Below are positions 1-54,981 of a stretch of 64,000 bases of DNA, one piece after another. Positions within the stretch are counted from its first letter, which is position 1. The number at the start of each line of letters is the position of its first letter. The position numbers and the translations under genes are program-made. The notes beneath the pieces were generated by a model. That model was given only the letters and a program-made list of their open reading frames with translations, was not told where the DNA came from and did no database searches. Source of the stretch: an uncultured Gammaproteobacteria bacterium (lineage in GTDB: Bacteria; Patescibacteriota; Microgenomatia; Levybacterales; GWA1-39-11). The DNA is taken from NCBI GenBank assembly GCA_964531275.1, contig CAZHDZ010000001.1, positions 144,945 to 208,944 of the forward strand, given 5' to 3'.

Positions 1-451
1 CTCCACTCACATTGGACTTGATGAAGTTGATTCTGGTCAATTTGATAAAGAGGAAAGTATATCCTTTGCAACTGGAGCCTGCCTTTTGTTAAAGCGTGAT
101 GTTATAGATGATTTAGGTCTTTTTGACGAGAGATACTTCTTATACTATGAAGACGCTGATTTAAGCACGAAACTTATTAAAAATGGATATAAGCTGTTAT
201 ATATACCAAAAGGGATTGTTTGGCATAATAACGCAGGTTCTTCTGGTTCGGGGTCGGCTCTTCACGATTACTATTTAACCCGCAACAAGCTAATTTTTGG
301 TATGAAATATGCAAGTCCCAAAGTAAAAATTTTGCTTATGAAAGAGGCAGCAAGAATATTACTGAGTGGGCGAGAATGGCAAAAAAACGCAGTGAAGGAT
401 TATATTATTCGCAAGCTTGGAAAAGGAAGTTATGCGCCTAAAAAAGCATGA
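1..451 (+). CDS. Glycosyltransferase family 2, C-terminal part (5'-truncated by the window edge; the reading frame is open from nt 2)
   Basis: The in-frame translation from nt 2 reads ...SFATGACLLLKRDVIDDLGLFDERYFLYYEDADLS..., which is the classic GT2 C-terminal catalytic region (acceptor loop plus the ED motif). The stop overlaps the next gene's start (ATGA). Confidence 0.75.
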   Translation, partial: STHIGLDEVDSGQFDKEESISFATGACLLLKRDVIDDLGLFDERYFLYYEDADLSTKLIKNGYKLLYIPKGIVWHNNAGSSGSGSALHDYYLTRNKLIFGMKYASPKVKILLMKEAARILLSGREWQKNAVKDYIIRKLGKGSYAPKKA

Positions 452-5175: not shown

Positions 5176-5417
5176 TTTTTTCTAAAATTTAACCACGAAG
5201 AGATTTCCGCAAGTGTCAGTCTTTTCTTAGCAAATTTGAAAAGATAAAGAATTTCAACAATTCCAAATTCGTTAATAGGGATTAATACAAATAGCACAAT
5301 AAACCAGTTACGCTGCTTTCCTTGGGATGCTCTCCAAAGTGCAAACCCTTTTATCGAAAGTTGTATAACAGAAATTATAATAATAAGTGTAAGACTTAAT
5401 GGATCCGGTGTTTTCAT
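5172..5417 (-). CDS. Small hydrophobic protein (2 predicted TM helices), hypothetical
   Basis: An 81-aa minus-strand ORF fills the otherwise empty 308-bp gap between two + strand genes. It is hydrophobic (IIIISVIQLSIKGFALW...FIVLFVLIPINEFGIVEILYLF). No clear SD sequence is present. Confidence 0.35.
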   Translation of the reverse strand: MKTPDPLSLTLIIIISVIQLSIKGFALWRASQGKQRNWFIVLFVLIPINEFGIVEILYLFKFAKKRLTLAEISSWLNFRKN

Positions 5418-5483
5418 AATTAAACTCTAGCATATGAGCTTTTCTTGTGCAATATTGATAGAATATAAAAAAGGATAGAAAGT

Positions 5484-19732: not shown

Positions 19733-19746
19733 ATGTATATCTAAAG

Positions 19747-28619: not shown

Positions 28620-29317
28620 ACCCTCAATACGCCTGGTCTCCAAATAATTTTGATGCAGAAATACTTGGTGTCAATGTTGCAAAAATAACGACAGTTAACG
28701 ATTTAGGATCTATAAAAAAAATGCTCATTGAACTAGCTGATAATAAAATTGAATATGCACATTACAGATTAAAATCTAATGAAATAGAGATTATCCAAGA
28801 GCTTGAGAGAAATGGATTTATTTTTGTTGATGGTACGATTGCATTTATTAATGAGAATTTAGGTAATGATGATAGAATTAATTCAATCCGACTGGTAGAT
28901 CCAAAGGAAATAGAAAATCTTAAAGAAATCGCCTCGACCTTTCATGGCACGCGTTTTTTTAATGATTCACGAATTGATAAGAGAACGGCAACCGAAATAT
29001 ACAAAAGGTGGATCGAAAATTCAGTGAAGGATGAGACGGTCCAGGTTTTTGTATATACTGATGATGAAAAAATTTCAGGATTTGTGACTGTCCAAGATGA
29101 CCATATTGTTCTCATTGCAGTAAAGTCAGAAATGCAGGGTCGAGGGATAGGCAAAAAATTAGTTAAGCATGCCTTAGCTGTTATTAAAAAAAATGGTTTT
29201 AACTCGGCTTATATAGAAACCCAAATGCAGAACATCCCTGCTATTGGTGCCTATATCTCAAACGGATTCAAGGTGCTTGATACTTATGTAACTCTTGCAT
29301 GGGGAAAGACGCCTTAG
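28616..29317 (+). CDS. GNAT N-acetyltransferase, WecD-like (amino-sugar N-acetyltransferase)
   Basis: 233 aa. It has a C-terminal GNAT motif (EMQGRGIGKKLVKHALAVIKKNGFNSAYIETQMQNIPAIGAYISNGF). It is ATGA-coupled directly downstream of the DegT aminotransferase, as in the wecE-wecD arrangement. Confidence 0.6.
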   Translation: MNPQYAWSPNNFDAEILGVNVAKITTVNDLGSIKKMLIELADNKIEYAHYRLKSNEIEIIQELERNGFIFVDGTIAFINENLGNDDRINSIRLVDPKEIENLKEIASTFHGTRFFNDSRIDKRTATEIYKRWIENSVKDETVQVFVYTDDEKISGFVTVQDDHIVLIAVKSEMQGRGIGKKLVKHALAVIKKNGFNSAYIETQMQNIPAIGAYISNGFKVLDTYVTLAWGKTP

Positions 29318-32289: not shown

Positions 32290-33249
32290 TTAGTAAGCAT
32301 CTTTTTTCCAGCCATATTCATCAACTAGTTCAAGAATTTCTTTTATGCCTTCTTCAATACCATACTGGGGGCTAAAATCTAGAAAGCCTTTTGCCTTTGT
32401 AATATCTTGCGCTCCACGAAAAACCTGTTGGACAGTGGGCTCTTTAACCTCATAAGAAAATTTTGGAAAATGTTTTTTAAGAATTTCTGCAAAATCTGTA
32501 GCAGATCTTGGTTCTCCTCTGGATATATTAAAAGTCTGGTATACAGCACTTGGTCTTTCTACTGTTAATGCAAATCCCTCGGCTACATCCTCAACGTATG
32601 AAAAGTCTAACGTCTCTCCTCTAACCACCCATGCAGATTTACTTGTCAGTGCGGCATCAAGGAGAAGCTGCGTCACACGGTTTGCTGCATCTGTGTATCC
32701 GTATACAGAGGTTGGTCTTACAATTACCCATTCTTTTTTTGAAAGCCTTACGAAATATTCTCCTGCAGCCTTGCATGCACCATAGCTATTTATAGGATTA
32801 AGGATAACGTCTTCGGGTTGTGGGCTTTTTGTGAAATGACCATAAGTCATGCTTGAAGAAGTGTAAATTATCTTTGTAGCGCTACTGGATTTTTCAAATT
32901 CTTCCAGAACATTAAGCGTTCCATATAGTGTGATTGGAATCATCTCATCTTCAAATTCTGGGAGAGGTCTTGCCATAGGAATTGCCGCAAGATGAATAAC
33001 GATGTTGGGATTGAATTCATCAAAGGCTTTCTTGACATGTGCTTTATTTCTAATATCACCTTTTAGACTGTATGAGATTTTATTTTTATAGAGTTTTTTC
33101 CTATGTAATAACGCTGCCTTATGATATTTTGGTTTGTTAATAAAGCTAGAATTGTTATCAAGCACCCCAACTTCATAACCTCGTCCAAGGAGTTTGTGTG
33201 CGACTGCACTTCCAATTAGTCCATTGCCTCCAGTTATGAGTACTTTCAT
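32290..33249 (-). CDS. NAD-dependent sugar-nucleotide epimerase/dehydratase (extended SDR)
   Basis: The sequence contains MKVLITGGNGLIGSAVAHKLLGRGYEVGVLDN and the catalytic YGACK (YxxxK). It forms a minus-strand operon with 30800..32287. Confidence 0.8.
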   Translation of the reverse strand: MKVLITGGNGLIGSAVAHKLLGRGYEVGVLDNNSSFINKPKYHKAALLHRKKLYKNKISYSLKGDIRNKAHVKKAFDEFNPNIVIHLAAIPMARPLPEFEDEMIPITLYGTLNVLEEFEKSSSATKIIYTSSSMTYGHFTKSPQPEDVILNPINSYGACKAAGEYFVRLSKKEWVIVRPTSVYGYTDAANRVTQLLLDAALTSKSAWVVRGETLDFSYVEDVAEGFALTVERPSAVYQTFNISRGEPRSATDFAEILKKHFPKFSYEVKEPTVQQVFRGAQDITKAKGFLDFSPQYGIEEGIKEILELVDEYGWKKDAY

Positions 33250-37155: not shown

Positions 37156-37830
37156 ATGAAAGCAAAAAAATTTGAAGAGTCTTATTTTAAAGGGTGGTAT
37201 AAGAGTGCTGTTGGCAATTTTACAGCAGAAGATTTAAAAATTTCGAAGCGTTGGTTTTACGCTTGGCTTGTAAAGCTTAATGAATATGTGCCTTTACAAA
37301 AGGGTCATGGGAAGAGGGTTCTTGAGATAGGTTGTTCCATAGGTGCAGTATCTAACTTGCTTTCTGAAAGAGGGTTTAGTGTTTGGGCAACAGACATCTC
37401 AAGTTATGCAGTAAAAAAAGCTCAGAAATTGACTCCAGCTGCTAAATTTTCAGTTTTAGATATTCAGCAAAAGATAACTCTAAAAGAGAAATTTGATTAC
37501 ATTATCGCATTTGAAGTTGTAGAGCATTTAGACAAACCAGAGAAGAGTATAAAGAATATGTATGATGCACTTATACCACGGGGGAAAGTAATCGTTTCAA
37601 CACCTTTTCCGTATCCTTGGAATTTTCGAGACCCAACCCACATAAATGTTAAATACCCAAATGAATGGGTTGCTATCATGAAAGAGGTAGGATTTAAAAA
37701 GGTGTCATATCATAGATTTACCCTTATACCATTCTTCTACAGATTTAATAAAAGATTTCAATTTATAATTCCATTTGCTATACCGCTCCCATATTTAAAC
37801 AGTCCTATTTTCTTTATTGGTACTAAATGA
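37156..37830 (+). CDS. Class I SAM-dependent methyltransferase
   Basis: Motif I is VLEIGCSIGAVSNLLSERGFSVWATDIS, and the post-I motif is IIAFEVVEHL. Confidence 0.7.
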   Translation: MKAKKFEESYFKGWYKSAVGNFTAEDLKISKRWFYAWLVKLNEYVPLQKGHGKRVLEIGCSIGAVSNLLSERGFSVWATDISSYAVKKAQKLTPAAKFSVLDIQQKITLKEKFDYIIAFEVVEHLDKPEKSIKNMYDALIPRGKVIVSTPFPYPWNFRDPTHINVKYPNEWVAIMKEVGFKKVSYHRFTLIPFFYRFNKRFQFIIPFAIPLPYLNSPIFFIGTK

Positions 37831-40800
37831 AACGAATCAAAAGAAGCAGGGTCGAGATTATCGTTATTATTTTGCTTGGATTAATTCCGTTGCTGTGGTT
37901 TCGTGGCACAGAAGTTATATTAGGACATGATTCAGGTCTACCTCTATCACCGATACCCCACTTCTTAGACCGTCTATACGCATGGACTGTAAGATTTGGA
38001 TTTGGCAACGATCAGACATATGCAATTCCCGGCTTCTTTATTCATGGTTTGGAAGCTTTAGTTTCTTCCTTGGGATTTGATTTGCAGTCAATGCAAAAAA
38101 TTACTTTTTCCATTTGGTTTGTTCTCCCCGGAGTTACTATGTATTACTTAGGAAGCCGTCTTGAAAAAAAACTAAAGATTAATTTTCTAAGTCTGCCTGC
38201 AGCAGTTTTTTACATGATTAATCATTTTTTATTGCAGGGATGGTTTGTGGCAGAAAGAACTAAATTTTCAGTATATGCTGCGCTTCCTCTCATGATAGCG
38301 ATCCTATTAGATTGGAGTGACGGAAGGAGGAAGACGTTTACCGCTGCCGTATTAATTGCTCTGATATTTTTTGTACTGAATGGTTTGGCAAGCTTACCAC
38401 TATTTGGAGGGGTGATTATTGCCTTGATTGTTTTTATTTTTTACTATTTATATCAGCAGTTTTCATGGATAAGGATAGGATCACTCTTTCAACTTTTTGG
38501 TGTAACGTTAGTAGTAAGCGTTGCGCTTCATGCATACTGGCTGGTACCTTTTGTATTTTCATTAAAAACTTCCTATAGCGAGTCTGTGACTTTTTTTGGC
38601 GGGAAGGAGGGAATTCTTGATTGGGTAAAATACGCAAGCCTTAATAGCTCCTACAATAATCTATTGCGCCTGCAAGGGGTTCCTGAGTGGTACCAAAATC
38701 CTGGTCACCCATATGCAAATAATTTCTTAACTAATCCTCTGCTTATTTTTATTAGTGTTGCAATCCCCATTTGTGTTTTTTCAACACTTCTTATTTTTAA
38801 GAAGAGCGCTGAAAAAAAAGTAATACTTTTTTTTGGCCTTCTGGCTATAGTCTCTTTGCTATTCGTTGCAGGTGCACATCCACCTTTCGGAACTTTGTAT
38901 ATTTTCTTAATGCAAAATATTCCAGGGTTTATAGCATTCAGAAATCCATTCTACAAATTTTCTCCCTCATTATGGCTTGCATATGCTGTTCTTATTGGCT
39001 TTTTTATAAGCTTTATCATGAGTAGGGTCGTTGTAATAAACAAAAAAATTGCTTATGTTTTTTATTCGTTCGTAATAATTGGAATAGTACTTTATAGCTA
39101 CCCATTCCTTAATGGTACTTTTTTTGATTATGTTAAAAACGAACGCTCAAATAGAGTTGTGGTTCCATCCTATATTATGGACTTTGGTAAATGGAGTGAG
39201 AGTAGGGAGAGGATAGATAAAAAAACTTTAATGTTGCCCCCTCCGAATATTGATGGAACTGTGGAGGAATACACCTGGGGATATTGGAGTCTAGCACCAA
39301 TCAGTACGCTTTTGACAAATGCTCCAATTCTTAATAATAGCCTGTTCCTGGGTAAAAACGAAAAGACCATGCTTACCACTCTATATTCAATGATGGAAAA
39401 GGATGAGCAAGGTTGGGAACAGCTAGCTAAAATAATGGGGATAGACTCTTTTGTTGTAAGAGATGATTTTGTTTGGGATAATCCCTCTTCGCCTTCAGTA
39501 AATCCTGCCGTTTATCAAAAAGCATTAACATCCAAAAATGTTCAAAAGGTAAAAGAATTTGAGAAGTGGCATATATACGATCTCAAAGAAGGACGGGATG
39601 ATTTTCTCCAATATAACACCTATTCTTTTGTAGCCGGTGATGTAGGAACTATTGGAAAAATTGCATCTCTTCCTGGGTATTCTTATGAAGAGCCTTTAGT
39701 AGCAGATACGAACGGAAATAGTTTGCTCAAAATGAGTCCAAACACCTACTATCTTGATAGTTATTGTGTGATGTGTGATTTGCAGTGGAAATTTATAAAT
39801 ACACTTGCTTATACACCAACAATTACGCAAGGGTCATTTATGTACCCTATCATAGGGAGGAATGTGTATCAAGAAATTTCTTTGCTGGATCAACCGCAGG
39901 AACTGGCTATATATTATTCAGAAAAGGCGCTGCGAGATATATTAGGTCTACAAAAAAGTATTGATTTAGCAGAAAAAGATGACGTTTTAAAAGAGATAAT
40001 AACCGACATCGAGGAGGACTTATTTAATATAAGAAGAACGGTGCAGTTAAGTCAAAATGAAATTAATAATGTCACGAAACTAGACATACTATCATTCATA
40101 AGAACGCAAAAAGTAGTTATTAGCCAAATTAAGGAAAAAAATTTAAGTTCGATTTCTATGGATAAGATGCTTAAGGCAATCGAAATTAATGAAAGTTTTT
40201 TAAATCAAATTACCTTTAGAACCTCATCAGAAACAAAGAAGCAACTATTGGTAACTTCGCCAATAGCCCATGAATATAGTGTGTATTATCGACCTAATGA
40301 TAATATTGAAGATAGCAATTCTGTAAGCATTTCAATAAATAATCAGCAGCTTATTTTACCTGTTCTTGAAGAAGATGGGCGGTGGAGAAAGCTTTCTGAA
40401 GTAAATTTAAATAAAGGTCTGAATACTATAGTTGTTCAACAGCCAATTAATGATATTCAGAAGCAAAAATCAGTCAGGCTTGTTGAGTCAACCAATGGTT
40501 GTTATTATTCCGAGAAGATTGATTCAAAACGTGGAGATATATTTAAGCTTACATTTGATCATAGACTTTTATCCAGCTACGATAAGTTCTTCGTAACATT
40601 TGTACCTGCTGGAGAAAGCGTTGATAAGGCACCTAGTATAGATTCTCTAACATCGGTAAAAGGCAGTAGACTCTATGAGACTACATACGCGCCAATTGCT
40701 GGACGTAGCTTTCAATTCGTTATTTGTAACACTTCTATACACAATGACCCTAAGCATTCCGATATACAAATTGAGAATATAAGTATGCGAAAAATAGCTG

Positions 40801-41144
40801 TTCCGGACCTGATATTTGTTAAACAAGGAGCTCAGTCAAAATCTAGCCAACCAAGAATTCTAGAGAGAAGCAATACTTCATACACACTAGAAGGGACAAA
40901 TGTGAATGGATCCAGCGTTCTTACTTTTTCCCAATCGTACAATAATAATTGGAAAAGTGACACATATGAGCACTTTATTGTTAATGGTTTCTCTAATGGA
41001 TGGATTTTGCCTAGTGAGACTCAGAAAGTACGTGTAAAATACAAGATACAGGACTTATTTATCATTGGAGTAACGATCACAAGTATTTCGTTGGTAGGGA
41101 CTCTAATTATTTTAATAGGTATTTATAAAAAACGATCTAAATGA
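37827..41144 (+). CDS. Giant (1105 aa) YfhO-like membrane protein: an N-terminal GT-C-type polytopic module, an extracytoplasmic domain of roughly 650 aa, and a C-terminal TM anchor
   Basis: The N-terminal roughly 430 aa have more than 10 TM helices. The C-terminal end (SQSYNNNWKSD...NGFSNGWILPSETQKVRVKY plus IIGVTITSISLVGTLIILIGIY) parallels the YfhO-like C-terminal motif. An AftD-like (DUF3367) architecture is possible but unverified. Confidence 0.55.
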   Translation: MKRIKRSRVEIIVIILLGLIPLLWFRGTEVILGHDSGLPLSPIPHFLDRLYAWTVRFGFGNDQTYAIPGFFIHGLEALVSSLGFDLQSMQKITFSIWFVLPGVTMYYLGSRLEKKLKINFLSLPAAVFYMINHFLLQGWFVAERTKFSVYAALPLMIAILLDWSDGRRKTFTAAVLIALIFFVLNGLASLPLFGGVIIALIVFIFYYLYQQFSWIRIGSLFQLFGVTLVVSVALHAYWLVPFVFSLKTSYSESVTFFGGKEGILDWVKYASLNSSYNNLLRLQGVPEWYQNPGHPYANNFLTNPLLIFISVAIPICVFSTLLIFKKSAEKKVILFFGLLAIVSLLFVAGAHPPFGTLYIFLMQNIPGFIAFRNPFYKFSPSLWLAYAVLIGFFISFIMSRVVVINKKIAYVFYSFVIIGIVLYSYPFLNGTFFDYVKNERSNRVVVPSYIMDFGKWSESRERIDKKTLMLPPPNIDGTVEEYTWGYWSLAPISTLLTNAPILNNSLFLGKNEKTMLTTLYSMMEKDEQGWEQLAKIMGIDSFVVRDDFVWDNPSSPSVNPAVYQKALTSKNVQKVKEFEKWHIYDLKEGRDDFLQYNTYSFVAGDVGTIGKIASLPGYSYEEPLVADTNGNSLLKMSPNTYYLDSYCVMCDLQWKFINTLAYTPTITQGSFMYPIIGRNVYQEISLLDQPQELAIYYSEKALRDILGLQKSIDLAEKDDVLKEIITDIEEDLFNIRRTVQLSQNEINNVTKLDILSFIRTQKVVISQIKEKNLSSISMDKMLKAIEINESFLNQITFRTSSETKKQLLVTSPIAHEYSVYYRPNDNIEDSNSVSISINNQQLILPVLEEDGRWRKLSEVNLNKGLNTIVVQQPINDIQKQKSVRLVESTNGCYYSEKIDSKRGDIFKLTFDHRLLSSYDKFFVTFVPAGESVDKAPSIDSLTSVKGSRLYETTYAPIAGRSFQFVICNTSIHNDPKHSDIQIENISMRKIAVPDLIFVKQGAQSKSSQPRILERSNTSYTLEGTNVNGSSVLTFSQSYNNNWKSDTYEHFIVNGFSNGWILPSETQKVRVKYKIQDLFIIGVTITSISLVGTLIILIGIYKKRSK

Positions 41145-41461: not shown

Positions 41462-43315
41462 ATGGATATTGTAAGAGGTGACTGGAGATTCTTCTGGCCG
41501 GATAGCTTGTTATCTTTCATTGGGATTCCATCCGCCTGGGATTCATCACTTAATACAGGTCTTGGAATGCAAGCAACGAATACGATGTGGATTACTAGCT
41601 ATCTACATCTATCAGCCACAATTTCTAGTCTGGGCTTGGGATGGCTCTGGACAACATTTTTATTTTGGCTTATTCCGATTATTCTTATATCAATTCTTTC
41701 ATCATATTTTTTATCCAGGTATGTGCTTCGCAATAAATCGCCCTTACTATCTCTTGTTTCAGGTGTAATTTATGCAACAAATACTTATTTTCTATTAATT
41801 TTCTTTGGTGGTCAGTTAGGTGTTGCGTTTGCATACTCTTTGGCTCCCGTCGTTATTCTTTCCTATTTATATTATGCGGAAAAAATAACCTTAAGCCGAG
41901 GGATTTTAGTTGGTATCGTAGCTGCAATACAATTAGTATTTGATCCGCGCCTTACGATGCTTACTCTTTCTGCCGCATATGCAGTTCTACTTATTAGTCG
42001 AATAGGGCTTCTGAAACTCCTTAAAATTTCTATAGTACCGGTTATAGTTGCTCTTTCCTTGCATGCCTTCTGGATAATACCGACAATTCTTTTCCACTCA
42101 AAAACGCCGTATGAAATGCAATCAGGTGCAACCGTCTCTTTTTTAAGTTTTGCCTTATTGGAAAATACAATAAGTCTTTTGCATCCCAATTGGCCTCAAA
42201 ATATATTTGGCAAGGTTTATTTCATGAAACCCGAATATTTAATTATTCCAATTATTGCATATCTGCCTATTGTGTTAGGTAAATCAAAAGAAGTAAGAAA
42301 AGAATTACTCGCATTCGCCTTCATTGCGCTTATCGGAGCGTTTTTGGCAAAAGGTGTAAATGAACCATTTGGCTTTGTTTATCAATTTATGAGTGGCTAT
42401 ATTCCCGGATTTACAATGTTTCGGGATCCAACAAAATTTTACTTATTAATTGCACTTTCCTATTCAGTTCTCATCCCCTATGGGATTTATACGGTATATG
42501 GTTTTTGCAAGAAGAGATTTAATGGAAAAATAGTATTAAACCACTTAATACTGTTATTTTTAGCGATATGGATCTTTCTTCAGAGGGATGTTTTTCTCGG
42601 TACAGTACATACTCCATCTCCACAAAAAATACCTCCAGGCTATGAACGGCTTGCACAATTTATAAGTAATCAGAATAATGACTTTCGTACTCTTTGGATT
42701 CCCCAATGGCAGAGATATGGATATTTTTCAAATCAGAATCCTGCTATTGGCAGAGGTGAAATTCCTATGAATAAAATAAACGACGAAAGACTTGATCTTC
42801 ATTCGATAAAGTATGTCATGGTCCCATTTGATTCAGAGGGCGAGATATTCATAAATGACGGAAAATACTCCGAGAAGCTTTTCAAAGATACAGTCCAAAA
42901 GATTCAAATTCTACCTTATCTCAGGCAAGTGGAAGAATTCGGAAAAATTATAGTTTTTGAGAACTTCGATTTTAGAAAAAGATTTTATGTTAGCGACAGT
43001 TCTTCTGATATTACTTTTTCAAGAAAGAATTCTATCTATGATCTAATACTCAATAAAACAAAAGACAAGAAAACCATTGTATTTACTGATAATTATTCTC
43101 AATATTGGTATGCTTCGTACCAAAATAAAACTTTTAAGTCTCAGAATTATCGGGGAGTAAATAGTTTTATAATACCAGGAGACGTAACTCAGATACGAAT
43201 TAGTTACGGGGTACAAAAAGTGGTTAATATTAGTTTTATTATTAGTCTACTGTCTTTATTTTTTCTATTAGGTTTTTTGGCGTTTTCAAAAATAAAAAAT
43301 GATAAAACTCACTAA
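41462..43315 (+). CDS. YfhO-like polytopic membrane protein with a C-terminal beta-sandwich-like domain and a TM anchor
   Basis: 617 aa. The C-terminus reads TDNYSQYWYASYQNKTFKSQNYRGVNSFIIPGDVTQIRISY plus a hydrophobic tail. Confidence 0.55.
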   Translation: MDIVRGDWRFFWPDSLLSFIGIPSAWDSSLNTGLGMQATNTMWITSYLHLSATISSLGLGWLWTTFLFWLIPIILISILSSYFLSRYVLRNKSPLLSLVSGVIYATNTYFLLIFFGGQLGVAFAYSLAPVVILSYLYYAEKITLSRGILVGIVAAIQLVFDPRLTMLTLSAAYAVLLISRIGLLKLLKISIVPVIVALSLHAFWIIPTILFHSKTPYEMQSGATVSFLSFALLENTISLLHPNWPQNIFGKVYFMKPEYLIIPIIAYLPIVLGKSKEVRKELLAFAFIALIGAFLAKGVNEPFGFVYQFMSGYIPGFTMFRDPTKFYLLIALSYSVLIPYGIYTVYGFCKKRFNGKIVLNHLILLFLAIWIFLQRDVFLGTVHTPSPQKIPPGYERLAQFISNQNNDFRTLWIPQWQRYGYFSNQNPAIGRGEIPMNKINDERLDLHSIKYVMVPFDSEGEIFINDGKYSEKLFKDTVQKIQILPYLRQVEEFGKIIVFENFDFRKRFYVSDSSSDITFSRKNSIYDLILNKTKDKKTIVFTDNYSQYWYASYQNKTFKSQNYRGVNSFIIPGDVTQIRISYGVQKVVNISFIISLLSLFFLLGFLAFSKIKNDKTH

Positions 43316-44474
43316 ATCAACTTTTTACAAAGAGAAAGAAACGAAGCAACGTCTTGCAAAATTCATAGTGGAGTCGCATCAACTAAGCTTTGGAGCTGAG
43401 TGCGAAAAATTTGAATTGGCTTTCGCGAATTACCAAAGGCGGAAATACTGCATATTTCTTAATTCCGGTAGTTCTGCAAATCTTGCATTAGTTCAGGCAC
43501 TACTTAATATGGGCAAATTAAAACATGGGGATAAGGTTGGTTTTTCTGCGCTTACATGGTCCACCAATGTGATGCCGATAATACAATTGGGCCTGTTAGC
43601 AGTTCCAATTGATGTGGAGCTTAATACTCTAAATGTATCCTCTTCTCAGATAAAAAAAGTATTGAAAAAACACAAGCTAAAAATGATATTCCTTACAAAT
43701 TTACTCGGTTTTTGTGATGACATTGATGTAATTAAATCTTTGTGTGACAAAGAAAAGATACTATTAGTCGAAGATAACTGTGAGTCGTTAGGCACTATAT
43801 TTAAAGGAAGATTATTGGGTAATTTTGGCATTTCAAGTACTAACTCTTTTTATGTTGGACATCACATGTCAACTATAGAGGGGGGAATGATAGCAACAGA
43901 CAGTCTGAGCCTTGCTAATCAACTGAGGATTGTGAGGGCTCATGGTTGGGATAGAAATTTATCCAGCTCAAAGCAATCAAAAATGAGAGATAAGTTTAAT
44001 GTTAATTCTACGTTCTATTCGCGATACACTTTTTATGAACAAGGATTTAATCTTAGGCCAACTGAAATAAGCGGCTTTATAGGAAACATTCAAATCAAAT
44101 ATCTTGATGAAATAACAAAGATAAGAAATAAGAATTTTCTAGAGCTTGCTGTTCCTATATATAATGATAGCAGTAGGTACCATGCAATAAAGTATGATCA
44201 TATTGATTTCCTTTCAAATTTTGCAGTGCCAATCGTTTGTAGGTCCAAGCGTATCCGTGATGAATTGGTAAAGAAATGTGATGGACAGGTGGAAATTCGA
44301 CCTATTGTTGGTGGAGATATGACTAATCAGCCTTTTTTTGCAAAACATAGTAAGGGGTTAGTGTTCGATTGTCAAAATGCTCGGCTTGTACATGAGCAGG
44401 GTTTATATTTCCCAAATAACCCAGAGCTTACCCATAGAGAGAAAAAAATTATGCTTAAGATATTCACGTCTTAA
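43299..44474 (+). CDS. PMP-dependent nucleotide-sugar 3-dehydratase of the ColD/E1 type (GDP-4-keto-6-deoxy-D-mannose 3-dehydratase-like), a DegT-fold enzyme
   Basis: It has a DegT-like fold (SGSSANLALVQAL, LTWSTN, VEDNCESLG, VRAHGWDRNL). At the position of the PLP-lysine it has His188-His189 (SFYVGHHMSTIEGG; codons CAT CAC at 43860..43865). The 391-aa length matches ColD. Confidence 0.8.
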   Translation: MIKLTKSTFYKEKETKQRLAKFIVESHQLSFGAECEKFELAFANYQRRKYCIFLNSGSSANLALVQALLNMGKLKHGDKVGFSALTWSTNVMPIIQLGLLAVPIDVELNTLNVSSSQIKKVLKKHKLKMIFLTNLLGFCDDIDVIKSLCDKEKILLVEDNCESLGTIFKGRLLGNFGISSTNSFYVGHHMSTIEGGMIATDSLSLANQLRIVRAHGWDRNLSSSKQSKMRDKFNVNSTFYSRYTFYEQGFNLRPTEISGFIGNIQIKYLDEITKIRNKNFLELAVPIYNDSSRYHAIKYDHIDFLSNFAVPIVCRSKRIRDELVKKCDGQVEIRPIVGGDMTNQPFFAKHSKGLVFDCQNARLVHEQGLYFPNNPELTHREKKIMLKIFTS

Positions 44475-44476: not shown

Positions 44477-44689
44477 ATGAAACCACAAGACATTTTCTTT
44501 GTTATAGTTCTTTTGATTCTTCTTTTGAAGAGGTCTTATAAAATTTCTGTGTATGTGGGATTGGCTTTCATTTTGGCTTCAATGCCATTCTTCTTGTTTC
44601 AAATATTCTTTACTGCGCAGAGATTTGTAACATATGGCTTTGCCTTCATTTTTCTTGGATCTCTTCTCTTGTTGGTTAATAAGAAGTAG
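44477..44689 (+). CDS. Small membrane protein (2 TM helices), hypothetical
   Basis: 70 aa and hydrophobic. It starts 3 nt after the upstream stop. Confidence 0.4.
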   Translation: MKPQDIFFVIVLLILLLKRSYKISVYVGLAFILASMPFFLFQIFFTAQRFVTYGFAFIFLGSLLLLVNKK

Positions 44690-44758: not shown

Positions 44759-45667
44759 ATGGTAGTTCCGTCTCAAATTGCGATTGTGGGTATTACGTAT
44801 GAGAAGAAGTGGTATAGTGGGCCGCTTAAAAGTATAAAGCATACGGATAAGGTACGAGGAGATCTTATACTATACGCTTTGAGATATGCCACTGGAGTTG
44901 GATATAAGGTTGTAGTTGTTGACGGCGGAAGCGCCAAGACCTTAGTCTCTGCAATAAAAAAAATACAGGGGGTAAAATTATTCCAATCAAAAAAGCCAAA
45001 AAGATCTCCAAATAGAAGGAAGGCTATATTTGAAGCATCACAGATAGAAGATGTCAGAGCAATTGTTATGACAGAGCTTGAAAAAGTTTCTGTTATTACT
45101 GATTGCATTGAGATGATCGTTGACCCAATTATAAATGGTGATGCTGACTTAGTTATTCCAAAAAGAGATGATTTATTATTCAAAAAAACCGTTCCATCAT
45201 ATATGTATGAGTCGGAATCTGAAGGGAATCTGCTCTATTGCGAAGCATTAAGGGCAAATTCTCTGCTTTCTCCCAACTCCCCCGACCTAGATGTATTTTT
45301 TGGCGTTAGAGTTTTTAGAAATGATAAAAAACTTTTAAAGTCCTTGCTCTCGCATTATGAATCGAATCCATTTAACTCACTGTTGGAGCATAGGTTATTC
45401 GATTTTGAGGAGTACTCAAACGGCCAATTTTTCCCAGTAGTCAAAGCACTACAAAAGAAGAAAAAAGTAATTTCGGTTACTATTCCATTTACATACCCTG
45501 CCACTCAAATGGAAAATGAATTAAAGGGTCAGCGTGATTTTTTCATTTTAAAAAGAAGGTATCAGCGGCTTACAATACTAATAGAATTAATGCATTTTTT
45601 AGGGTACATCAACCATGAAGTCACTCGTAAAATAAAAAAAGGAAGTACAGTATTTACTAACGTTTAA
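44759..45667 (+). CDS. Hypothetical protein, possible nucleotide-diphospho-sugar transferase (GT-A-like) fold
   Basis: 302 aa and soluble. It contains ...YKVVVVDGGSAKTL... and ...INGDADLVIPKRDD..., reminiscent of GT-A folds. No confident family assignment was made. Confidence 0.45.
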   Translation: MVVPSQIAIVGITYEKKWYSGPLKSIKHTDKVRGDLILYALRYATGVGYKVVVVDGGSAKTLVSAIKKIQGVKLFQSKKPKRSPNRRKAIFEASQIEDVRAIVMTELEKVSVITDCIEMIVDPIINGDADLVIPKRDDLLFKKTVPSYMYESESEGNLLYCEALRANSLLSPNSPDLDVFFGVRVFRNDKKLLKSLLSHYESNPFNSLLEHRLFDFEEYSNGQFFPVVKALQKKKKVISVTIPFTYPATQMENELKGQRDFFILKRRYQRLTILIELMHFLGYINHEVTRKIKKGSTVFTNV

Positions 45668-49464: not shown

Positions 49465-50334
49465 ATGCCCTTTTCATTTATCATTCTTACGTATAACTCC
49501 TCCTCATATATAAGAGGCATTTTAGATTCAATTTTTGATATCGCGGGAGACATAATTTCAAAAGGTCAGGCTGAGGTTCTCGTTGTTGATAACGAATCTT
49601 CTGATGATACTTTAAAAATTGCATATGAATATGGCGAAAAGATTCATATCAAACAATCAGGTGGAAATTTAGGATATGCAAAAGGAATAAACAAAGCAGT
49701 AGAGTTTGCAAAAGGAGACTTTTTGGTAATAGTTAACCCTGACGCAAAGCTTCTCGAATTTGAATACGGGAAAATACTGGACACTTTTGAAAGAGACAAA
49801 AAATTAGCTGCAGCAGGGCTTTCTATTCAAAATTTTGAAGGTATTCATGAAGAGACATGTGGAAATTTTTTTAACCCTTTTACATTCCTTTTGTATGCAA
49901 TGGGATTTGAGAAATTGGCAAAAGTGAGGTTTGCCGGACATAAGGTGCAATACGTAGATTTTGTTAGTGGTGGTTTTATTATTTTTCGAAAATCATACTT
50001 TGACGAACTTAAAGGTTATGATGAGGATTATTTCATGTATGTTGAGGATATGGATATTTGCAAGAGGATTTACAAAAAGGGGCTAAAGACAGCCTTTTTA
50101 CCATATGGCAAAATATTACATAAAGGACAAGGTAGTTCTAGCAGACAGTTTGCAATTGTAAATATCTATAAAGGATTAGTCACTTTTTACTCAAAACACT
50201 CTAACTTTTTCGGCTTGCTGTATGTAAAAATCTTGCTTAGAATAAAAGCGGTACTTATAATTTTTATAGGAACTTTCCTTGGTAAAAAGGATACTATCGG
50301 AGCGTATACGAAAGCTTTGAAGGCAATATCATGA
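49465..50334 (+). CDS. Glycosyltransferase family 2
   Basis: The sequence contains MPFSFIILTYNSSSYIRGILDSI...VLVVDNESSDDT and YFMYVEDMDICKR. The ORF track starts at 49435, but the Met at 49465 gives a canonical GT2 N-terminus and avoids overlap with the upstream gene. Confidence 0.75.
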   Translation: MPFSFIILTYNSSSYIRGILDSIFDIAGDIISKGQAEVLVVDNESSDDTLKIAYEYGEKIHIKQSGGNLGYAKGINKAVEFAKGDFLVIVNPDAKLLEFEYGKILDTFERDKKLAAAGLSIQNFEGIHEETCGNFFNPFTFLLYAMGFEKLAKVRFAGHKVQYVDFVSGGFIIFRKSYFDELKGYDEDYFMYVEDMDICKRIYKKGLKTAFLPYGKILHKGQGSSSRQFAIVNIYKGLVTFYSKHSNFFGLLYVKILLRIKAVLIIFIGTFLGKKDTIGAYTKALKAIS

Positions 50335-53300
50335 AATTAGTCAATAAGATTTTTAAGAATGCGCTTCCAATAATTACATTACTTTTATTGCTCTTTATTC
50401 CTCTTTATCCAAAGCTTCCTTTGATAGATATAAAAAATACATGGGTTTATATTAGGTTCGAGGATTTTCTTGTGCTTTTTGCTATATTTTTTTGGTTCAT
50501 TTTATTGCTTCGCCGTGAGGTTACTTTAAAGACTCCGCTTACCATACCCATCTTGGCGTTTTGGATAATAGGTGCAATTGTCACGATGCATGGGGTAGTT
50601 ATTATTTTCCCAACAATTGCCACAGTTTTTCCTAATGTTGCTCTTCTTGCGTATCTTCGGCATATAGAGTATTTGTCAGTATTTTTTATAGCTTATTCAG
50701 CAGTTAAGAATAAAAAATTCGTAATGGCTTCAATTTGGACAGTCGTAATAACACTTCTGCTCGTAACCCTATACGGTTTTGGACAGAAGTATTTGTCCTT
50801 TCCTGCTTACCTTACGATGAACGAGGAATATGCAAAAGGAATCCCTATAATAATATCCCCACTTAACAGAATATCTTCAACCTTTGCAGGCCATTACGAT
50901 CTGGCAGCATATTTAGTTCTTATTATTCCAATTCTTGCAAGTCTTATTTTCGGGTTTAAAAGTATTATGGCAAAAGCATTTCTTGCTGTTGTCGCGCTTC
51001 TAGGAGTTGTTCTCCTTTTTATGACAGTATCTCGGGTTTCATTCTTTGTGCTATTTATCGCTTTATTTTTTGTTCTGTGGTTTCAAAAGAGAAAACTTGT
51101 TTTTATATTTCTTCCTTTCATTATTATTGGAGGGCTATTTTTTGCTGTTTCAAATTCTTCGCTTATCGAGAGATTTGGAAGCACAGTAAAGGAGGTTGAT
51201 GTATTAGTCGATGCTCAATCTGGAGCTCCAATAGGACACGTAGAGCTTCAACCACGTAAATATTTTGCCGATAAGACTATCCTTGACGAAAAAATAGAGG
51301 CGACCCCTTCGGGTTTTTTAAGACGTGGACGCATAAAGCTTGAGCCAGATGTTCCGCCACAGCTTTCAAAGTATGCAATTCCGAGAAAAATTGGAATTGT
51401 TCAGGCGAAAATAACTTCGACAGGCGAGACTCTGCCTCAAGGAAGTAGCTATATCAATTTGTCGTTGTCTCCTGTTACCGGTAGAATTAATAGTTTTTTC
51501 TATGAATATCCTCCCAATGAAGCGACTAGCCAGGCACAGCTTCGAATTGTCCCCGGAGACTATTTAGTTAAAAGAGCTTCAGCATATGACCTATCATTCA
51601 CTACAAGATTCCAGGGGGAGTGGCCCCATGCGCTCATGGCTTTTGGAAGGAATATACTTTTCGGAAGTGGATATGGTTCCGTTAGTCTTGCCGTTGATAA
51701 CAACTACTATAGAATGCTTGGAGAGACTGGATTATTGGGAACAACCGCATTTCTTGTGCTGTTTGTAATAACAGGAATCTATATAAGAAAGATGCTTCCT
51801 ACGACGGAGTCTCGTGTAATACGGAGCTTTGCCATGGGTTTTGGCGCTGGTTTGATCGGTCTTTCTCTCAATGCAGTGCTTATAGATGTGTTTGAAGCTT
51901 CCAAGGTAGCTTTTGTTCTTTGGTTGCTAACAGGATTAGTGATAGGAGCCTTATCTCTCAATCAGTCTCGGCATTTCAATACATACAAAGAGCTTTTAAA
52001 AGCTGCATACTCTCCTGCCGCTTTTATTGTTTATTTTCTTCTTCTTACGGTTACTATATTTTCTACGACTTTGGTTACTTATTTTAGTGGTGACGACTTC
52101 ACCTGGTTCAGATGGGCTGCTGATTGCAAATTAGGAAACGACTGTGCAAGTATGCTCTCAACAGTAGCTCATTATTTCCTCAATTCTGATGGCTTTTTCT
52201 ACAGACCCGGAACAAAGACGTACTTCCTACTCATGTACCCTTTGTTTTGGCTAAATCAAGTTATGTACCATTTTGTATCTGTCGCCCTCCATTTTGTCGT
52301 AGTAATCCTGCTATATCAACTTGCAAGAAAGATATTTAAGAACGAAATATTGGCAGCTGGTAGTGCTTTTTTATTCCTCATATTAAGTAGTTATCTTGAA
52401 GTAGTTCTTTGGGTTGCAGGTACAGGCCATCTATTCAATGCTGTTTTCATTTTGGCAAGCCTGCTGCTTTTTATTAAATGGGATGAGTCAAAGAACAAAT
52501 TTTATCTTGTTGGAAGTCTTGCGGCAGCGCTTTTATCTGTTGCTTTCCATGAGCTTGGAATAATAACTCCGTTCCTTGCAATTGCATATAAAATTTCTAT
52601 TGCACCAATTGGACTTAAATCATGGCTCAGCCTTGTAAGGGATAAAATATATCTGCTGTTATTTACTCCAGTCATTTTATACCTTCTGATAAGGTACTTT
52701 TCGCATACACATTGGTTCAATGGAGACTACTCTTACAATATCTGGAAATTTCCATTCAATGCTATTGGTAATTCATTTGGATACGCACTCATATCAGCAT
52801 TTGGTCCACTTACTTATCCTGTGTACGAAAAAGTAAGGGATATTCTAAAAACAAATATTCCATTTGCATTAATTTTTGGAATTACAATTATTGCAGTCTT
52901 ATATTTAGTAACACGGTTTGTTTCAAAGCGACTTGATACGCAATCAAAGAAGGTTATTATATTTGCAATTTTGTTTTTCGTAGTATGTCTTATTCCATTT
53001 CTAGGACTTGGGAATATCACATTCAGATATTCATATCTTGCATCTTTCGGAATAGTTATGATACTTATGCTTTGCGTTAATAAGTTATATCAATACTTAT
53101 TTTCTTATGGTCGAGACATAGCGCTTTTTGTAGTAATAGTGATATTTTCAGTATTTAGCTTGGTTCACATAATTCAGGCACAGCAAACAATGATTGAATG
53201 GCGTGGCGCTGGAGGTAGAGTTGAGAAATTTTTAAATTCACTAGACTCCTTATATGAAGATTCATGGTCTCATAATAAAGTTGACTTATACTTTACAAAT

Positions 53301-53516
53301 GTGCCGCTTAAAAACGGAAATGCATGGATTTTTCCAGTGGGACTTGATGATTCTGTTTGGTTTGCTTTTAAAAATAACAATATCGTAACGCACCAGGTTG
53401 CGACCTCTGCTGAGATTCCAAAAGCAATATTTCAGACTCCAACAAGTTGGGTATTCGAGTTTCAGGAGGATGGTAGTCTTAGGAGAGTTTATTTGGAGGA
53501 AAAGCAAAATGATTAA
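50331..53516 (+). CDS. Fusion membrane protein: an N-terminal O-antigen ligase/polymerase-like (Wzy_C) module plus a C-terminal GT-C-like polytopic module
   Basis: 1061 aa. Residues 1-540 are polytopic with a periplasmic loop. The segment ...HALMAFGRNILFGSGYGSVSLAVDNNYYRMLGETGLLG... is typical of the Wzy_C family. Residues 560-1061 form a second set of about 10 TM helices with loop YFSGDDFTWFRWAAD. Confidence 0.6.
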   Translation: MKLVNKIFKNALPIITLLLLLFIPLYPKLPLIDIKNTWVYIRFEDFLVLFAIFFWFILLLRREVTLKTPLTIPILAFWIIGAIVTMHGVVIIFPTIATVFPNVALLAYLRHIEYLSVFFIAYSAVKNKKFVMASIWTVVITLLLVTLYGFGQKYLSFPAYLTMNEEYAKGIPIIISPLNRISSTFAGHYDLAAYLVLIIPILASLIFGFKSIMAKAFLAVVALLGVVLLFMTVSRVSFFVLFIALFFVLWFQKRKLVFIFLPFIIIGGLFFAVSNSSLIERFGSTVKEVDVLVDAQSGAPIGHVELQPRKYFADKTILDEKIEATPSGFLRRGRIKLEPDVPPQLSKYAIPRKIGIVQAKITSTGETLPQGSSYINLSLSPVTGRINSFFYEYPPNEATSQAQLRIVPGDYLVKRASAYDLSFTTRFQGEWPHALMAFGRNILFGSGYGSVSLAVDNNYYRMLGETGLLGTTAFLVLFVITGIYIRKMLPTTESRVIRSFAMGFGAGLIGLSLNAVLIDVFEASKVAFVLWLLTGLVIGALSLNQSRHFNTYKELLKAAYSPAAFIVYFLLLTVTIFSTTLVTYFSGDDFTWFRWAADCKLGNDCASMLSTVAHYFLNSDGFFYRPGTKTYFLLMYPLFWLNQVMYHFVSVALHFVVVILLYQLARKIFKNEILAAGSAFLFLILSSYLEVVLWVAGTGHLFNAVFILASLLLFIKWDESKNKFYLVGSLAAALLSVAFHELGIITPFLAIAYKISIAPIGLKSWLSLVRDKIYLLLFTPVILYLLIRYFSHTHWFNGDYSYNIWKFPFNAIGNSFGYALISAFGPLTYPVYEKVRDILKTNIPFALIFGITIIAVLYLVTRFVSKRLDTQSKKVIIFAILFFVVCLIPFLGLGNITFRYSYLASFGIVMILMLCVNKLYQYLFSYGRDIALFVVIVIFSVFSLVHIIQAQQTMIEWRGAGGRVEKFLNSLDSLYEDSWSHNKVDLYFTNVPLKNGNAWIFPVGLDDSVWFAFKNNNIVTHQVATSAEIPKAIFQTPTSWVFEFQEDGSLRRVYLEEKQND

Positions 53517-54981
53517 GAAAATTTCAGAGTCTAAATGGATAATAATAATGTTTTTAGTTCTGTTTACTTTTCTAGGTTTTATTTTTCGTCTATACAAATT
53601 AGACAACCCAATAGCGGATTGGCACTCGTGGAGGCAAGCAGATACAGCAGCAGTCTCAAGAAACTTTATTAAAGATGGATTTAACCCTCTTTATCCTCAA
53701 TATGATGCTTTAAATCCGCTCAATGAAATCGGACATAATCCACAAAGATACTTCTTTGCGGAATTTCCCCTATATAACATAATCACTTACTATGCGTATC
53801 TTAATTTTGGAATTGATGAACGTTATGCACGAGCAATAAGCGCAATCTTTGCATCACTCACGATCCCTGTGCTTTATCTATTGGCCTCTCGTTATTCTAA
53901 TAAACGTGTTGCCCTGGCATCTTCCTTTTTCTTTGCCGTGCTTCCTTATAACGTATATTACGGTAGGGTGATTATGGCAGATCCGTTATATATATTCTTT
54001 GGTGTATCTGCATTGTATCTTGCTTCAAAATGGATTGAGAAAAATAACATTTTTTTCATGGTACTCGCAAGTATTTCTTTTGCACTCGCCATTCTTACAA
54101 AACCCTACGCTTTAGTTCTTCTTCTTCCTCTTGCATACCTAATTATTAGAAGATGGAAGCTGAAGGCGATTACCACATGGACGATCTACATATATCTTGC
54201 GATTGCAATTATTCCTTTTCTTCTGTGGAGACATCACATCAATCAGTACCCGGAAGGCATGTTTGGTACTGAGTGGTTGTATAACCAGGGTAACATTCGT
54301 TTTACCGGTGCTTATTTTAGGTGGCTTATTTTTGAGCGTATGAACAAACTTATATTTGCAACTGGAGGGTTTGTATTGGTTTTTCTGGGAATAGTAAGAT
54401 CAACATCAAAGAAAGAAGGGTATTTTTATCTTTTATGGCTTGCTGCAATTTTAGGGTTTTTTGTCGTAATTGCACGAGGAAATGTAACACACGATTACTA
54501 TCAATTGCCTATCGTACCCATAGGATGCATTCTTATGGCATTGGGTTTCGATTACCTCATAACTCATGGACAGAGCTATGTTAATAGAGCCTTAAATATA
54601 GGTATTGCCTTGTCTTTGGTTGTACTTATGCTTGCCTTCGGCTGGTATGAGGTGAGGGGCTATTACAACATAAATCATCCAGAAATAGTTGAAGCTGGAA
54701 AGGCGGTAGACCGGTTATTGCCAAAAGACGCTATTGTTATTGCTCCCTACGATAATGATTCCGCATTTTTATACCAAACAAATAGGCATGGCTATACATT
54801 CGGAGGAGATAAGGTTGAGAAATACATGCTTGAAGGTGCTACTCATTTAGTTTCGGTTAATTTTGACGATGTAACGAATTTTTGGATGCAAAAATGCGAT
54901 ATAGTTGAAAAAACATCCTCATATGTCATTGTCGATCTTAGACTTTGCAAGCAAGATGGAAAGGTATTGTCCTCACTATGA
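53509..54981 (+). CDS. ArnT/PMT-like GT-C membrane glycosyltransferase
   Basis: The ORF track starts at 53398, which would overlap the upstream gene by 119 nt. The ATG at 53509 (MIKKISESKW...) overlaps the upstream stop in an ATGATTAA arrangement. The loop reads DWHSWRQADTAAVSRNFIKDGFNPLYPQYD. Confidence 0.65.
   Translation: MIKKISESKWIIIMFLVLFTFLGFIFRLYKLDNPIADWHSWRQADTAAVSRNFIKDGFNPLYPQYDALNPLNEIGHNPQRYFFAEFPLYNIITYYAYLNFGIDERYARAISAIFASLTIPVLYLLASRYSNKRVALASSFFFAVLPYNVYYGRVIMADPLYIFFGVSALYLASKWIEKNNIFFMVLASISFALAILTKPYALVLLLPLAYLIIRRWKLKAITTWTIYIYLAIAIIPFLLWRHHINQYPEGMFGTEWLYNQGNIRFTGAYFRWLIFERMNKLIFATGGFVLVFLGIVRSTSKKEGYFYLLWLAAILGFFVVIARGNVTHDYYQLPIVPIGCILMALGFDYLITHGQSYVNRALNIGIALSLVVLMLAFGWYEVRGYYNINHPEIVEAGKAVDRLLPKDAIVIAPYDNDSAFLYQTNRHGYTFGGDKVEKYMLEGATHLVSVNFDDVTNFWMQKCDIVEKTSSYVIVDLRLCKQDGKVLSSL

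Follow-up and report, generated by a model that had tools for sequence, protein, structure and literature searches.

In a 64-kb stretch of DNA (from here: the window) from an assembly labelled uncultured Gammaproteobacteria, with the GTDB lineage Patescibacteriota, Levybacterales, we identified a gene for a protein of 391 amino acids (aa) that probably encodes a ColD-type nucleotide-sugar 3-dehydratase dependent on pyridoxamine 5′-phosphate (PMP). Its likeliest substrate is GDP-4-keto-6-deoxy-D-mannose, and the product would lead toward a GDP-3,6-dideoxyhexose such as GDP-L-colitose; for this reading as a whole we estimate a probability of about 0.68. The protein has the DegT fold, in which an invariant histidine replaces the Schiff-base lysine, the E1-type cluster motif is missing, the protein groups with ColD, and in relatives the gene is linked to gmd and fcl. 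Coordinates of all features are given in Table 1.

The DegT fold and the catalytic histidine

The earlier note on this DNA, which was made from the letters alone, had proposed a DegT-fold 3-dehydratase of the ColD type for this open reading frame (ORF). Database comparison bore this out. Pfam PF01041 (DegT_DnrJ_EryC1) matched residues 13-381 on profile positions 4-351 of 360 (187 bits, E 5.7e-55), and the top match in the PDB was ColD/WbdK of E. coli (2gms; 183 bits, E 6.5e-53, residues 19-374 on 20-374). It was followed by E1 (3bcx; 133 bits, E 1.3e-37) as the second family and by 9wvy, a putative nucleoside diphosphate (NDP)-4-keto-6-deoxyglucose 3-dehydratase (112 bits, E 3.8e-31), as the third. 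The seven top PDB sequences all belonged to these three dehydratase families (E 6.5e-53 to 3.8e-31), while the first ordinary aminotransferase, perosamine synthase, reached 85 bits (E 3.5e-23) over residues 31-220 only. Hence, a full-length DegT fold is combined with a histidine in place of the lysine and with 3-dehydratases as the nearest characterised relatives; the Schiff-base lysine of an aminotransferase is not present.

Two sets of homologues were used. For the close set, a search of 5.8 billion proteins yielded more than 7,600 matches at E ≤ 1e-10, of which the best 120 clusters were taken; their members are 66-100% identical to the window protein and ~390 aa long. For the wider set, 1.84 billion cluster representatives were scanned exhaustively with HMMER, which left 571 clusters with E ≤ 1e-30, and an alignment of 119 sequences was built from 114 full-length representatives, three close members including the window protein, ColD and E1. 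The start codon of the dehydratase gene is supported by the close set since I2, L4 and K6 are invariant in all 120 homologues of this length.

The nucleotides at 43857..43868 read gga cat cac atg and encode G187-H188-H189-M190, with residue 188 in the context TNSFYVGHHMSTIEGGM. At the matching site, the Lys-type DegT aminotransferase paralogue encoded at 27462..28619 in the same window reads FSFHPIKNMSTGDGG, and in the MAFFT alignment its lysine (outgroup row CFSFHPIKNMSTGDGGM) shares a column with His188. No lysine occurs between K169 and K225 of the dehydratase, so that no gap adjustment can bring one to the Schiff-base position. The replacement of the lysine by His188 was thus confirmed by the codon and by the alignments, and an alignment with a lysine at this position, which the earlier note had named as a refutation, can be excluded.

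In the HMMER alignment, His188 pairs without gaps with the first histidine of the SHH motif of ColD. The ColD chain in the PDB carries two extra N-terminal residues, and its index 190 therefore corresponds to native His188. The first histidine of the pair is the catalytic one because it is altered in the ColD mutant chains 3b8x (H188N), 2r0t (H188K) and 3gr9 (S187N/H188K). The proposed equivalence of His188 with ColD His188 and E1 His220 was confirmed by the alignments. This residue is invariant in 120/120 close homologues as well as in 119/119 sequences of the wider set, including ColD and E1, and is therefore not incidental; the closest homologues are not aminotransferases with a stray histidine, a case that had been considered at the outset.

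The histidine lies within an active-site motif of 14 residues, S183-F-Y-V-G-H-H-M-S-T-I-E-G-G196, in which at least 119 of the 120 close members share each of the residues S183, Y185, V186, G187, H188, H189, M190, S191, T192, E194, G195 and G196. The corresponding motifs are S-S-F-Y-S-H-H-I-A-T-M-E-G-G in ColD and S-F-Y-P-A-H-H-I-T-M-G-E-G-G in E1; V-G-H-H, including G187, is common to the gmd-linked members of the family. Upstream, the cofactor-binding strand E158-D159-N160-C161-E162 corresponds to EDNCES in ColD. In the wider set, D159 occurs in 119/119, C161 in 116/119 and E162 in 112/119 sequences; as in fold-type I enzymes generally, Asp159 would be the partner of the pyridine nitrogen. 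Further conserved positions are E194 (119/119), S183, R253 and R334 (118/119 each), N251 (116/119) and R219 (112/119).

All of these positions are shared with ColD, as are S56-G57-S58 and W87, and the two proteins have in common the motifs SGS, EDNCE, HH, EGG and RAHGW(D/T)RN together with W87, S183, N251/R253 and R334. The likeness to ColD of E. coli O55 (PDB 2gms, 2gmu, 3b8x, 2r0t, 3gr9) extends to the fold, to the length (391 aa compared to a chain of 390 residues, with few gaps) and to the number of the catalytic histidine. The sequences differ in that identity is ~33% and F-Y-V-G-HH stands here for S-F-Y-S-HH in ColD. Arg219 and Arg334, the latter presumably the counterpart of ColD Arg331, are conserved in E1 as well and have no power to tell the nucleotide types apart.

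A DegT fold would likewise be expected if the protein were an ordinary sugar aminotransferase whose histidine is incidental, or a relic without activity; the cluster does contain a bona fide Lys-type DegT aminotransferase, and SpnQ transaminates under some conditions (PMC8987622). Such an explanation is very improbable given that the histidine is invariant in 119 diverse relatives, that 12 of the 14 motif positions are invariant in at least 119/120 members, that the reading frame is intact and full-length, and that aminotransferases match with at most 85 bits over half the length. Moreover, the ColD chain 3gr9 carries both S187N and H188K; reportedly, both changes were needed to convert ColD into an aminotransferase. 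The window copy departs from the family consensus at 12 positions, compared to a median of 6, and ranks 7th of 120 in this respect. Decay of this copy was nevertheless rejected, since it has an uninterrupted frame and retains every motif residue.

ColD type versus iron-sulfur type

E1 and SpnQ possess a four-cysteine [2Fe-2S] motif and require a reductase, whereas ColD lacks a cluster, resolves the intermediate by hydrolysis and uses glutamate to restore PMP (PMC8987622). By analogy with the ColD mechanism reviewed there, PMP would form a Schiff base with C4 of the NDP-4-keto-6-deoxyhexose, His188 would deprotonate the cofactor at C4′, and loss of the 3-hydroxyl would leave a 3,4-ene intermediate, from which ammonia and the NDP-4-keto-3,6-dideoxyhexose would be freed by hydrolysis and tautomerisation. 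As L-glutamate would regenerate PMP from pyridoxal 5′-phosphate, neither an iron-sulfur cluster nor a reductase partner would be needed.

The segment facing the [2Fe-2S] loop of E1 is free of cysteine: E1 D250-C-Y-C-A-P-G-C-D-N-T-C-K262, with cysteines at 251, 253, 257 and 261, aligns to W217-DRNLSSSKQSKMR-230. The flanking RAHGW(D/T)RN (RAHGWDRN here) is common to ColD and the whole family. Three of the four reported cluster cysteines of E1 are without counterpart, and only the EDxC cysteine (C161) is present, which ColD has as well. The lack of an obvious [2Fe-2S] cysteine cluster, noticed at first reading, is thereby confirmed. In addition, no ferredoxin-reductase or E3-type gene was found among the Pfam annotations of the 64-kb window.

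The comparison with characterised enzymes points in the same direction. E1/DdhC/AscC/RfbH (3bcx, 3bb8) share with the window protein the DegT fold, the histidine (His220) for the lysine, and a PMP-dependent C3 deoxygenation toward 3,6-dideoxyhexoses (PMC8987622); they differ by ~30 extra N-terminal residues, the loop with C251/C253/C257/C261 and the reductase E3, all of which are absent here. SpnQ-type dTDP-sugar 3-dehydratases and 9wvy belong to the same superfamily with the same replacement of lysine, but they differ in the [2Fe-2S] cluster and the ferredoxin/flavodoxin reductases (PMC8987622) and, judged from 9wvy, are more distant in sequence. Furthermore, no rmlA, rmlB or 2,3-dehydratase gene accompanies the window gene.

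In a neighbour-joining tree rooted on the Lys-type paralogue, the topology was (E1,(ColD,(family))). Monophyly of the family as well as the grouping of the family with ColD to the exclusion of E1 were recovered in 200/200 bootstraps. The less derived member L030 scores 210 bits with ColD vs 168 with E1.

The NCBI and JGI names of several homologues imply a different enzyme, a dehydratase of the E1/RfbH/SpnQ type that has a CDP- or dTDP-sugar as substrate and depends on an iron-sulfur cluster and an external reductase. The automatic names (P0016, P0029, P0040, P0041 and others) read 'CDP-4-keto-6-deoxy-D-glucose-3-dehydrase', 'CDP-6-deoxy-D-xylo-4-hexulose-3-dehydrase' or generic DegT aminotransferase. 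RfbH (NF011936) was also the best NCBIfam model; its score of 200 bits fell below the cut-off of 423, hence the window protein is not an RfbH equivalog, and RfbH probably tops the list because no ColD model appeared among the matches. A non-canonical cluster would be conceivable on C35, C149 and C161, which occur family-wide. These three belong to five cysteines, with C314 and C327, that are invariant in the close set, but the family cysteines are not conserved as a set. In wider relatives they are lost independently of one another, to V, T, A, L, P or F; the family-specific ones vary within the family to A, S, V, L or F and correspond to Val or Ile in ColD, whose residues at positions 35, 149 and 161 are V, I and C. 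A hidden iron-sulfur or other metal site is therefore unsupported. Counterparts of E1 cysteines 251, 253, 257 and 261 are missing, and neither the window nor the neighbourhood of the relatives yielded a gene for a CDP-glucose 4,6-dehydratase, cytidylyltransferase or E3-type reductase, whereas GMD and Fcl-like genes do adjoin the relatives. Together with the grouping with ColD, this renders an E1-type enzyme improbable. A cluster-free dehydratase of the ColD type is the assignment supported by these sequence comparisons.

Gene context in relatives and the likely substrate

The ORFs of 36 species-level loci were classified against Gmd, Fcl, ManC and RmlA-D of E. coli K-12 and against the short-chain dehydrogenases/reductases (SDRs) considered in this study. 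These loci come nearly all from Patescibacteria (Roizman-, Gottesman- and Yanofskybacteria, Saccharimonadales, Parcubacteria, Paceibacterota), and their best dehydratase is 71% identical to the window protein. A gmd gene was found immediately or closely upstream of the dehydratase gene in 11 of them (L029-L037, L039 and L042, directly upstream in the last) and at a distance of 8.6 kb in L012. The order gmd, dehydratase, Fcl-like SDR characterises L029-L037 (47-54% identical) and L039 (61%), with L036 having gmd and no adjoining Fcl-like SDR. All seven gmd genes tested scored above the curated GMD equivalog cut-off (437-574 bits vs 415). On the GDP-L-fucose synthase model, the downstream SDRs of L030, L039 and L002 reached 466, 267 and 220 bits, respectively, in each case as the best, full-length match.

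An SDR of the L002 type lies directly downstream of the dehydratase gene in the closest clade (60-71% identity: L002, L010, L011, L016, L017, L019, L020, L022, L028, L038) and 2.7 kb away in L014. Altogether, an Fcl-like SDR is found directly downstream in about 20 loci; in L024 a Gmd/Rmd-like SDR occupies this place. ColC is an enzyme of the Fcl class, and the gmd...fcl-like operons of the relatives resemble the gene sets for colitose. The gmd-linked members make up a basal grade within the family in the neighbour-joining tree, and their linkage accordingly looks ancestral. Among the 36 loci, no CDP- or dTDP-glucose pathway gene was consistently associated with the family. The gmd/fcl linkage in relatives 47-64% identical to the window protein points to GDP-4-keto-6-deoxymannose as the substrate.

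Transferred from the relatives to this genome, the pathway would begin with GMD supplying GDP-4-keto-6-deoxy-D-mannose. After the 3-dehydratase, an SDR of the Fcl/ColC class would reduce the product with or without C5 epimerisation, yielding e.g. GDP-L-colitose, and the sugar would enter the cell-surface glycan built by the window cluster.

Within the window itself these partners were not recognized. In contrast to the colitose gene sets, the window gene adjoins neither gmd nor colC. The suggested check for GMD and ColC homologs thus had a divided outcome, with such genes beside the relatives but none in the 64 kb. Searches by tblastn with Gmd, Fcl, RmlB and the Fcl-like SDR of L002 returned only the two SDRs of the window. 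One of them passes the GalE cut-off (397 bits vs 262). The other, of 319 aa, reads SSSMTYG...YGACK, and neither has the T-D-E triad of 4,6-dehydratases; the 319-aa protein is the only candidate in the window for the downstream 4-ketoreductase, an uncertain one.

The presence of ManC in the same locus had been taken as consistent with a GDP-linked pathway. A ManC-like gene is present, 32% identical to E. coli ManC (E 4e-48), but it lies 15 kb off among probable mannosyltransferase genes, and it scores 222 bits on the NCBIfam model GMP_PMI against a cut-off of 373. It is a possible source of GDP-mannose and weak as evidence for the pathway.

A second potential user of an NDP-4-keto sugar is the aminotransferase gene with its GNAT neighbour (27462..29317, + strand), which is PseC/ArnB-like and below both cut-offs. 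Since the 64 kb contain no 4,6-dehydratase, the two keto-sugar branches would depend on a dehydratase encoded elsewhere, or not on one at all.

Several observations weigh against the reading as a ColD-type enzyme for GDP-4-keto-6-deoxy-D-mannose. NCBIfam models, a motif check and tblastn found no gmd, fcl/colC-like or 4,6-dehydratase gene in the window, and the Levybacteria-like sub-lineage comprising the window, L008, L018 and L048 has lost the fcl-like neighbour. The residues N182, M197 and A199 (codons 43842..43844, 43887..43889 and 43893..43895) flank the catalytic histidine motif, while 107-113 of the 120 close members have F, A and C there, and ColD also has F at 182. Ser187 of ColD is Gly187 here, and one third identity to ColD is low. 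The margins in BLAST are modest, with 170-176 bits between window protein and ColD, 182 between ColD and E1 and 137-144 between window protein and E1. The tree was made by a distance method with few outgroup and reference taxa.

Some of these points would fit a ColD-fold 3-dehydratase that in this genome uses another NDP-4-keto-6-deoxy sugar or feeds an end product other than colitose. The gene appears relocated from gmd and fcl-like genes into a different module (see below), the neighbours of the window, L008, L018 and L048 dehydratases are unlike those of the rest of the family, and generic non-Fcl SDRs lie directly downstream in L007, L013 and L015. The substitutions F182N, A197M and C199A beside the active site and the high rank in consensus departures could be read in the same sense. 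We consider such a change of substrate or end product unlikely. The window protein is 61-71% identical to members with an Fcl-like neighbour or a nearby gmd (L039, L012, L002), and the catalytic and motif residues are identical. Members of the sub-lineage nest inside the closest clade without a long separate branch. Moreover, pathway genes are often dispersed in these genomes, as the distant gmd of L012 illustrates. GDP-4-keto-6-deoxy-D-mannose remains the likeliest substrate.

Table 1. Features of the window treated in this study, with position, strand and basis of assignment
Feature	Position	Strand	Basis
Gene of the probable ColD-type PMP-dependent NDP-4-keto-6-deoxyhexose 3-dehydratase, 391 aa	43299..44474	+	ORF, ATG start, Pfam, PDB matches
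Codon CAT, His188, catalytic histidine at the Schiff-base lysine position	43860..43862	+	Aligned to ColD His188 and E1 His220
Active-site motif S183 to G196	43845..43886	+	Conservation in 120 members
Cofactor-binding strand EDNCE (158-162)	43770..43784	+	Conservation
Cysteine-free segment W217-D-R-N-L-S-S-S-K-Q-S-K-M-R230, facing the E1 [2Fe-2S] loop	43947..43988	+	HMMER alignment to 3bcx
Upstream gene, 617 aa, GT-C-fold membrane glycosyltransferase	41462..43315	+	AlphaFold2 model and Foldseek; overlaps the dehydratase start by 17 nt
Conserved hydrophobic ORF, 70 aa, probable two-span membrane protein	44477..44689	+	tblastn
Downstream gene, 302 aa, GT-A-fold protein	44759..45667	+	AlphaFold2 model and Foldseek; no Pfam or NCBIfam match
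Generic extended SDR, 319 aa, epimerase/reductase type	32290..33249	-	No NCBIfam equivalog: LegB 89, rmlD 68, gmd 51/415, Fcl 28/500 bits
ManC-like nucleotidyltransferase, guanylyltransferase domain only	59173..60258	+	Pfam NTP_transferase and ManC_GMP_beta-helix

The surrounding glycan cluster and the wider family

The window is made up of one glycan-assembly cluster of ~63 kb. It contains at least 15 genes for glycosyltransferases (GT) of the GT2 and GT4 families, a tandem run of PMT_2 genes, YfhO proteins, a flippase, a priming phosphoglycosyltransferase, two methyltransferases, two acetyltransferases and the Lys-type DegT aminotransferase with a WecD-like GNAT protein. The tandem run (13641..21387, + strand) consists of five consecutive paralogous membrane proteins of the PMT_2 type (GT-C-like), and further PMT_2, YfhO and PTPS_related membrane proteins are encoded at 448..8770 and 53398..54981; the density of lipid-carrier-dependent transferases is unusually high. 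Two large proteins, of 1061 aa (50331..53516, + strand) and 1105 aa (37827..41144, + strand), have no Pfam match. For the former, a weak Wzy_C match in its syntenic homologues of L046 and L047 suggests that it may be a polymerase or ligase-like protein of very large size.

The dehydratase gene itself is flanked by a GT-C gene upstream and by a small hydrophobic ORF and a GT-A gene downstream. For the 617-aa and 302-aa proteins, Pfam and NCBIfam were empty and profile searches of PDB sequences gave chance matches only. Comparison by hhalign with the GT2 and YfhO proteins of the window yielded probabilities of 4.9% (GT2, 302-aa protein) and 6.6%. Their folds were therefore resolved only by structure models. 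The AlphaFold2 model of the 617-aa protein (predicted local distance difference test, pLDDT, 91.0; predicted template modelling score, pTM, 0.90) had GT-C proteins as all top 25 Foldseek matches in the PDB, with AftD first (E 6.9e-8, query-normalised template modelling (TM) score 0.51), then STT3, AftA, AglB, PglB, ArnT and Emb; these enzymes use lipid-linked donors. Its residues D7, R9 and D27 are invariant in 59 sequences, in keeping with the conserved acidic residues in the first extracytoplasmic loop of GT-C enzymes, and may act in catalysis. The 1105-aa protein mentioned above is a paralogue of this GT-C protein.

The model of the 302-aa protein (pLDDT 91.3, pTM 0.89) matched ArnC (E 1e-6) and dolichyl-phosphate mannose synthase (DPMS; E 1.3e-6) with TM scores of 0.42-0.47, and nucleotidyltransferases of the same fold matched as well. 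The modelled fold is of the GT-A type, and its best, moderate matches are the polyprenyl-phosphate glycosyltransferases ArnC and DPMS. D55 is invariant and D130 nearly so (≥90%) in 62 sequences; the ~130 homologues, from Levy- and Roizmanbacteria, are all called 'hypothetical'. The 70-aa ORF between the dehydratase and GT-A genes has counterparts between the same two genes in L008 (44% identity, E 6e-17) and L018 (45%, E 4e-12) and could be a small flippase-like or accessory subunit.

The gene order beginning with GT-C and dehydratase is the same in L008, L018 and L048, and the two genes overlap by 4 nt in L008 and L018. GT-A homologues (25-37% identical) also stand beside the gmd-dehydratase operons of L030, L031 and L036, whereas L046 and L047 (GT-A 48-52% identical) have kept the downstream partners with no adjoining dehydratase. 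The association of GT-A and dehydratase genes is thus recurrent and not obligatory, and the notion of the GT-A/GT-C pair as an obligatory partner is weakened. In L046, L047 and L048, the GT-A gene precedes an ORF of 177-180 aa with a GT4 N-terminal domain, followed by genes for a GT4, a hexapeptide acetyltransferase, a GT2, a protein of ~1050 aa and a PMT_2 protein.

The arrangement of a GT-C transferase, a small hydrophobic ORF and a GT-A protein around the dehydratase is reminiscent of the ArnC/ArnE-F/ArnT, GtrB/GtrA/GtrC and CsbB/GtcA/YfhO systems, and in the arn operon a DegT-fold sugar-modifying enzyme is likewise encoded alongside. It differs in that the fold matches are moderate (TM 0.42-0.51) and no similarity of the 70-aa ORF to the flippases GtrA or ArnE/F is established. 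Speculatively, polyprenyl phosphate might serve as carrier for the 3,6-dideoxyhexose; once the loaded carrier had been flipped, the GT-C enzyme would transfer the sugar, on the outside of the cell, to a polymer or protein of the surface, a scenario that we hold to be doubtful. If true, it would constitute a three-component decoration route in the style of Arn and Gtr, undescribed for colitose-type sugars; to our knowledge, no three-component lipid-carrier system exists for a 3,6-dideoxyhexose.

Members of the dehydratase family were found in Levybacteria, Roizmanbacteria, Gottesmanbacteria, Saccharimonadales, Parcubacteria, Yanofskybacteria and others, and more than 150 clusters at 50% identity score nearer to the window protein than E. 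coli ColD does. The family is a distinct and widespread ColD-type clade dominated by Patescibacteria. The view that the product would be a rare sugar for an organism of the candidate phyla radiation (CPR) therefore has to be given up, as the family is large, with at least 120 clusters at 66-75% identity, and conserved across many lineages of the Patescibacteria. In the literature searched, no paper tied Patescibacteria or CPR to colitose or dideoxyhexoses. Colitose is classically found in the O-antigen of lipopolysaccharide (LPS), and we know of no Patescibacteria-type envelope that contains one.

A number of loci (L007, L008, L010, L018-L021, L024-L026, L029 and L038) stem from third-party annotation (TPA) metagenome-assembled genomes titled 'uncultured Gammaproteobacteria' or 'Pseudomonadales'. 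Their gene content is in the style of Patescibacteria and their dehydratases are 54-71% identical to the window protein; the taxonomic labels of these genomes look unreliable. In L037 (9921..11111), from a record named Candidatus Woesearchaeota archaeon, gmd, an fcl-like gene and the dehydratase gene form an operon in this order, and the dehydratase is 49% identical to the window protein. Lateral transfer among ultra-small episymbionts, or else an error in binning, could explain its presence on a DPANN-attributed contig.

The enzymology of this one gene is expected rather than surprising. The family matters for annotation practice. The public names probably give the wrong nucleotide and the wrong subtype, because the iron-sulfur motif is missing and relatives are linked to gmd and fcl; proteins named as generic DegT aminotransferases or as CDP-specific iron-sulfur enzymes of the E1 type are, on the evidence, better regarded as cluster-free GDP-sugar dehydratases of the ColD type. 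A 3,6-dideoxyhexose branch, probably colitose-like, would accordingly be a common and conserved part of the surface-glycan gene sets in many Patescibacteria. Patescibacteria are ultra-small and live on the surface of host cells. Their envelope glycans are plausible determinants of attachment and of phage recognition, and the probable display of immunodominant-type dideoxy sugars would offer a concrete chemical handle on them.

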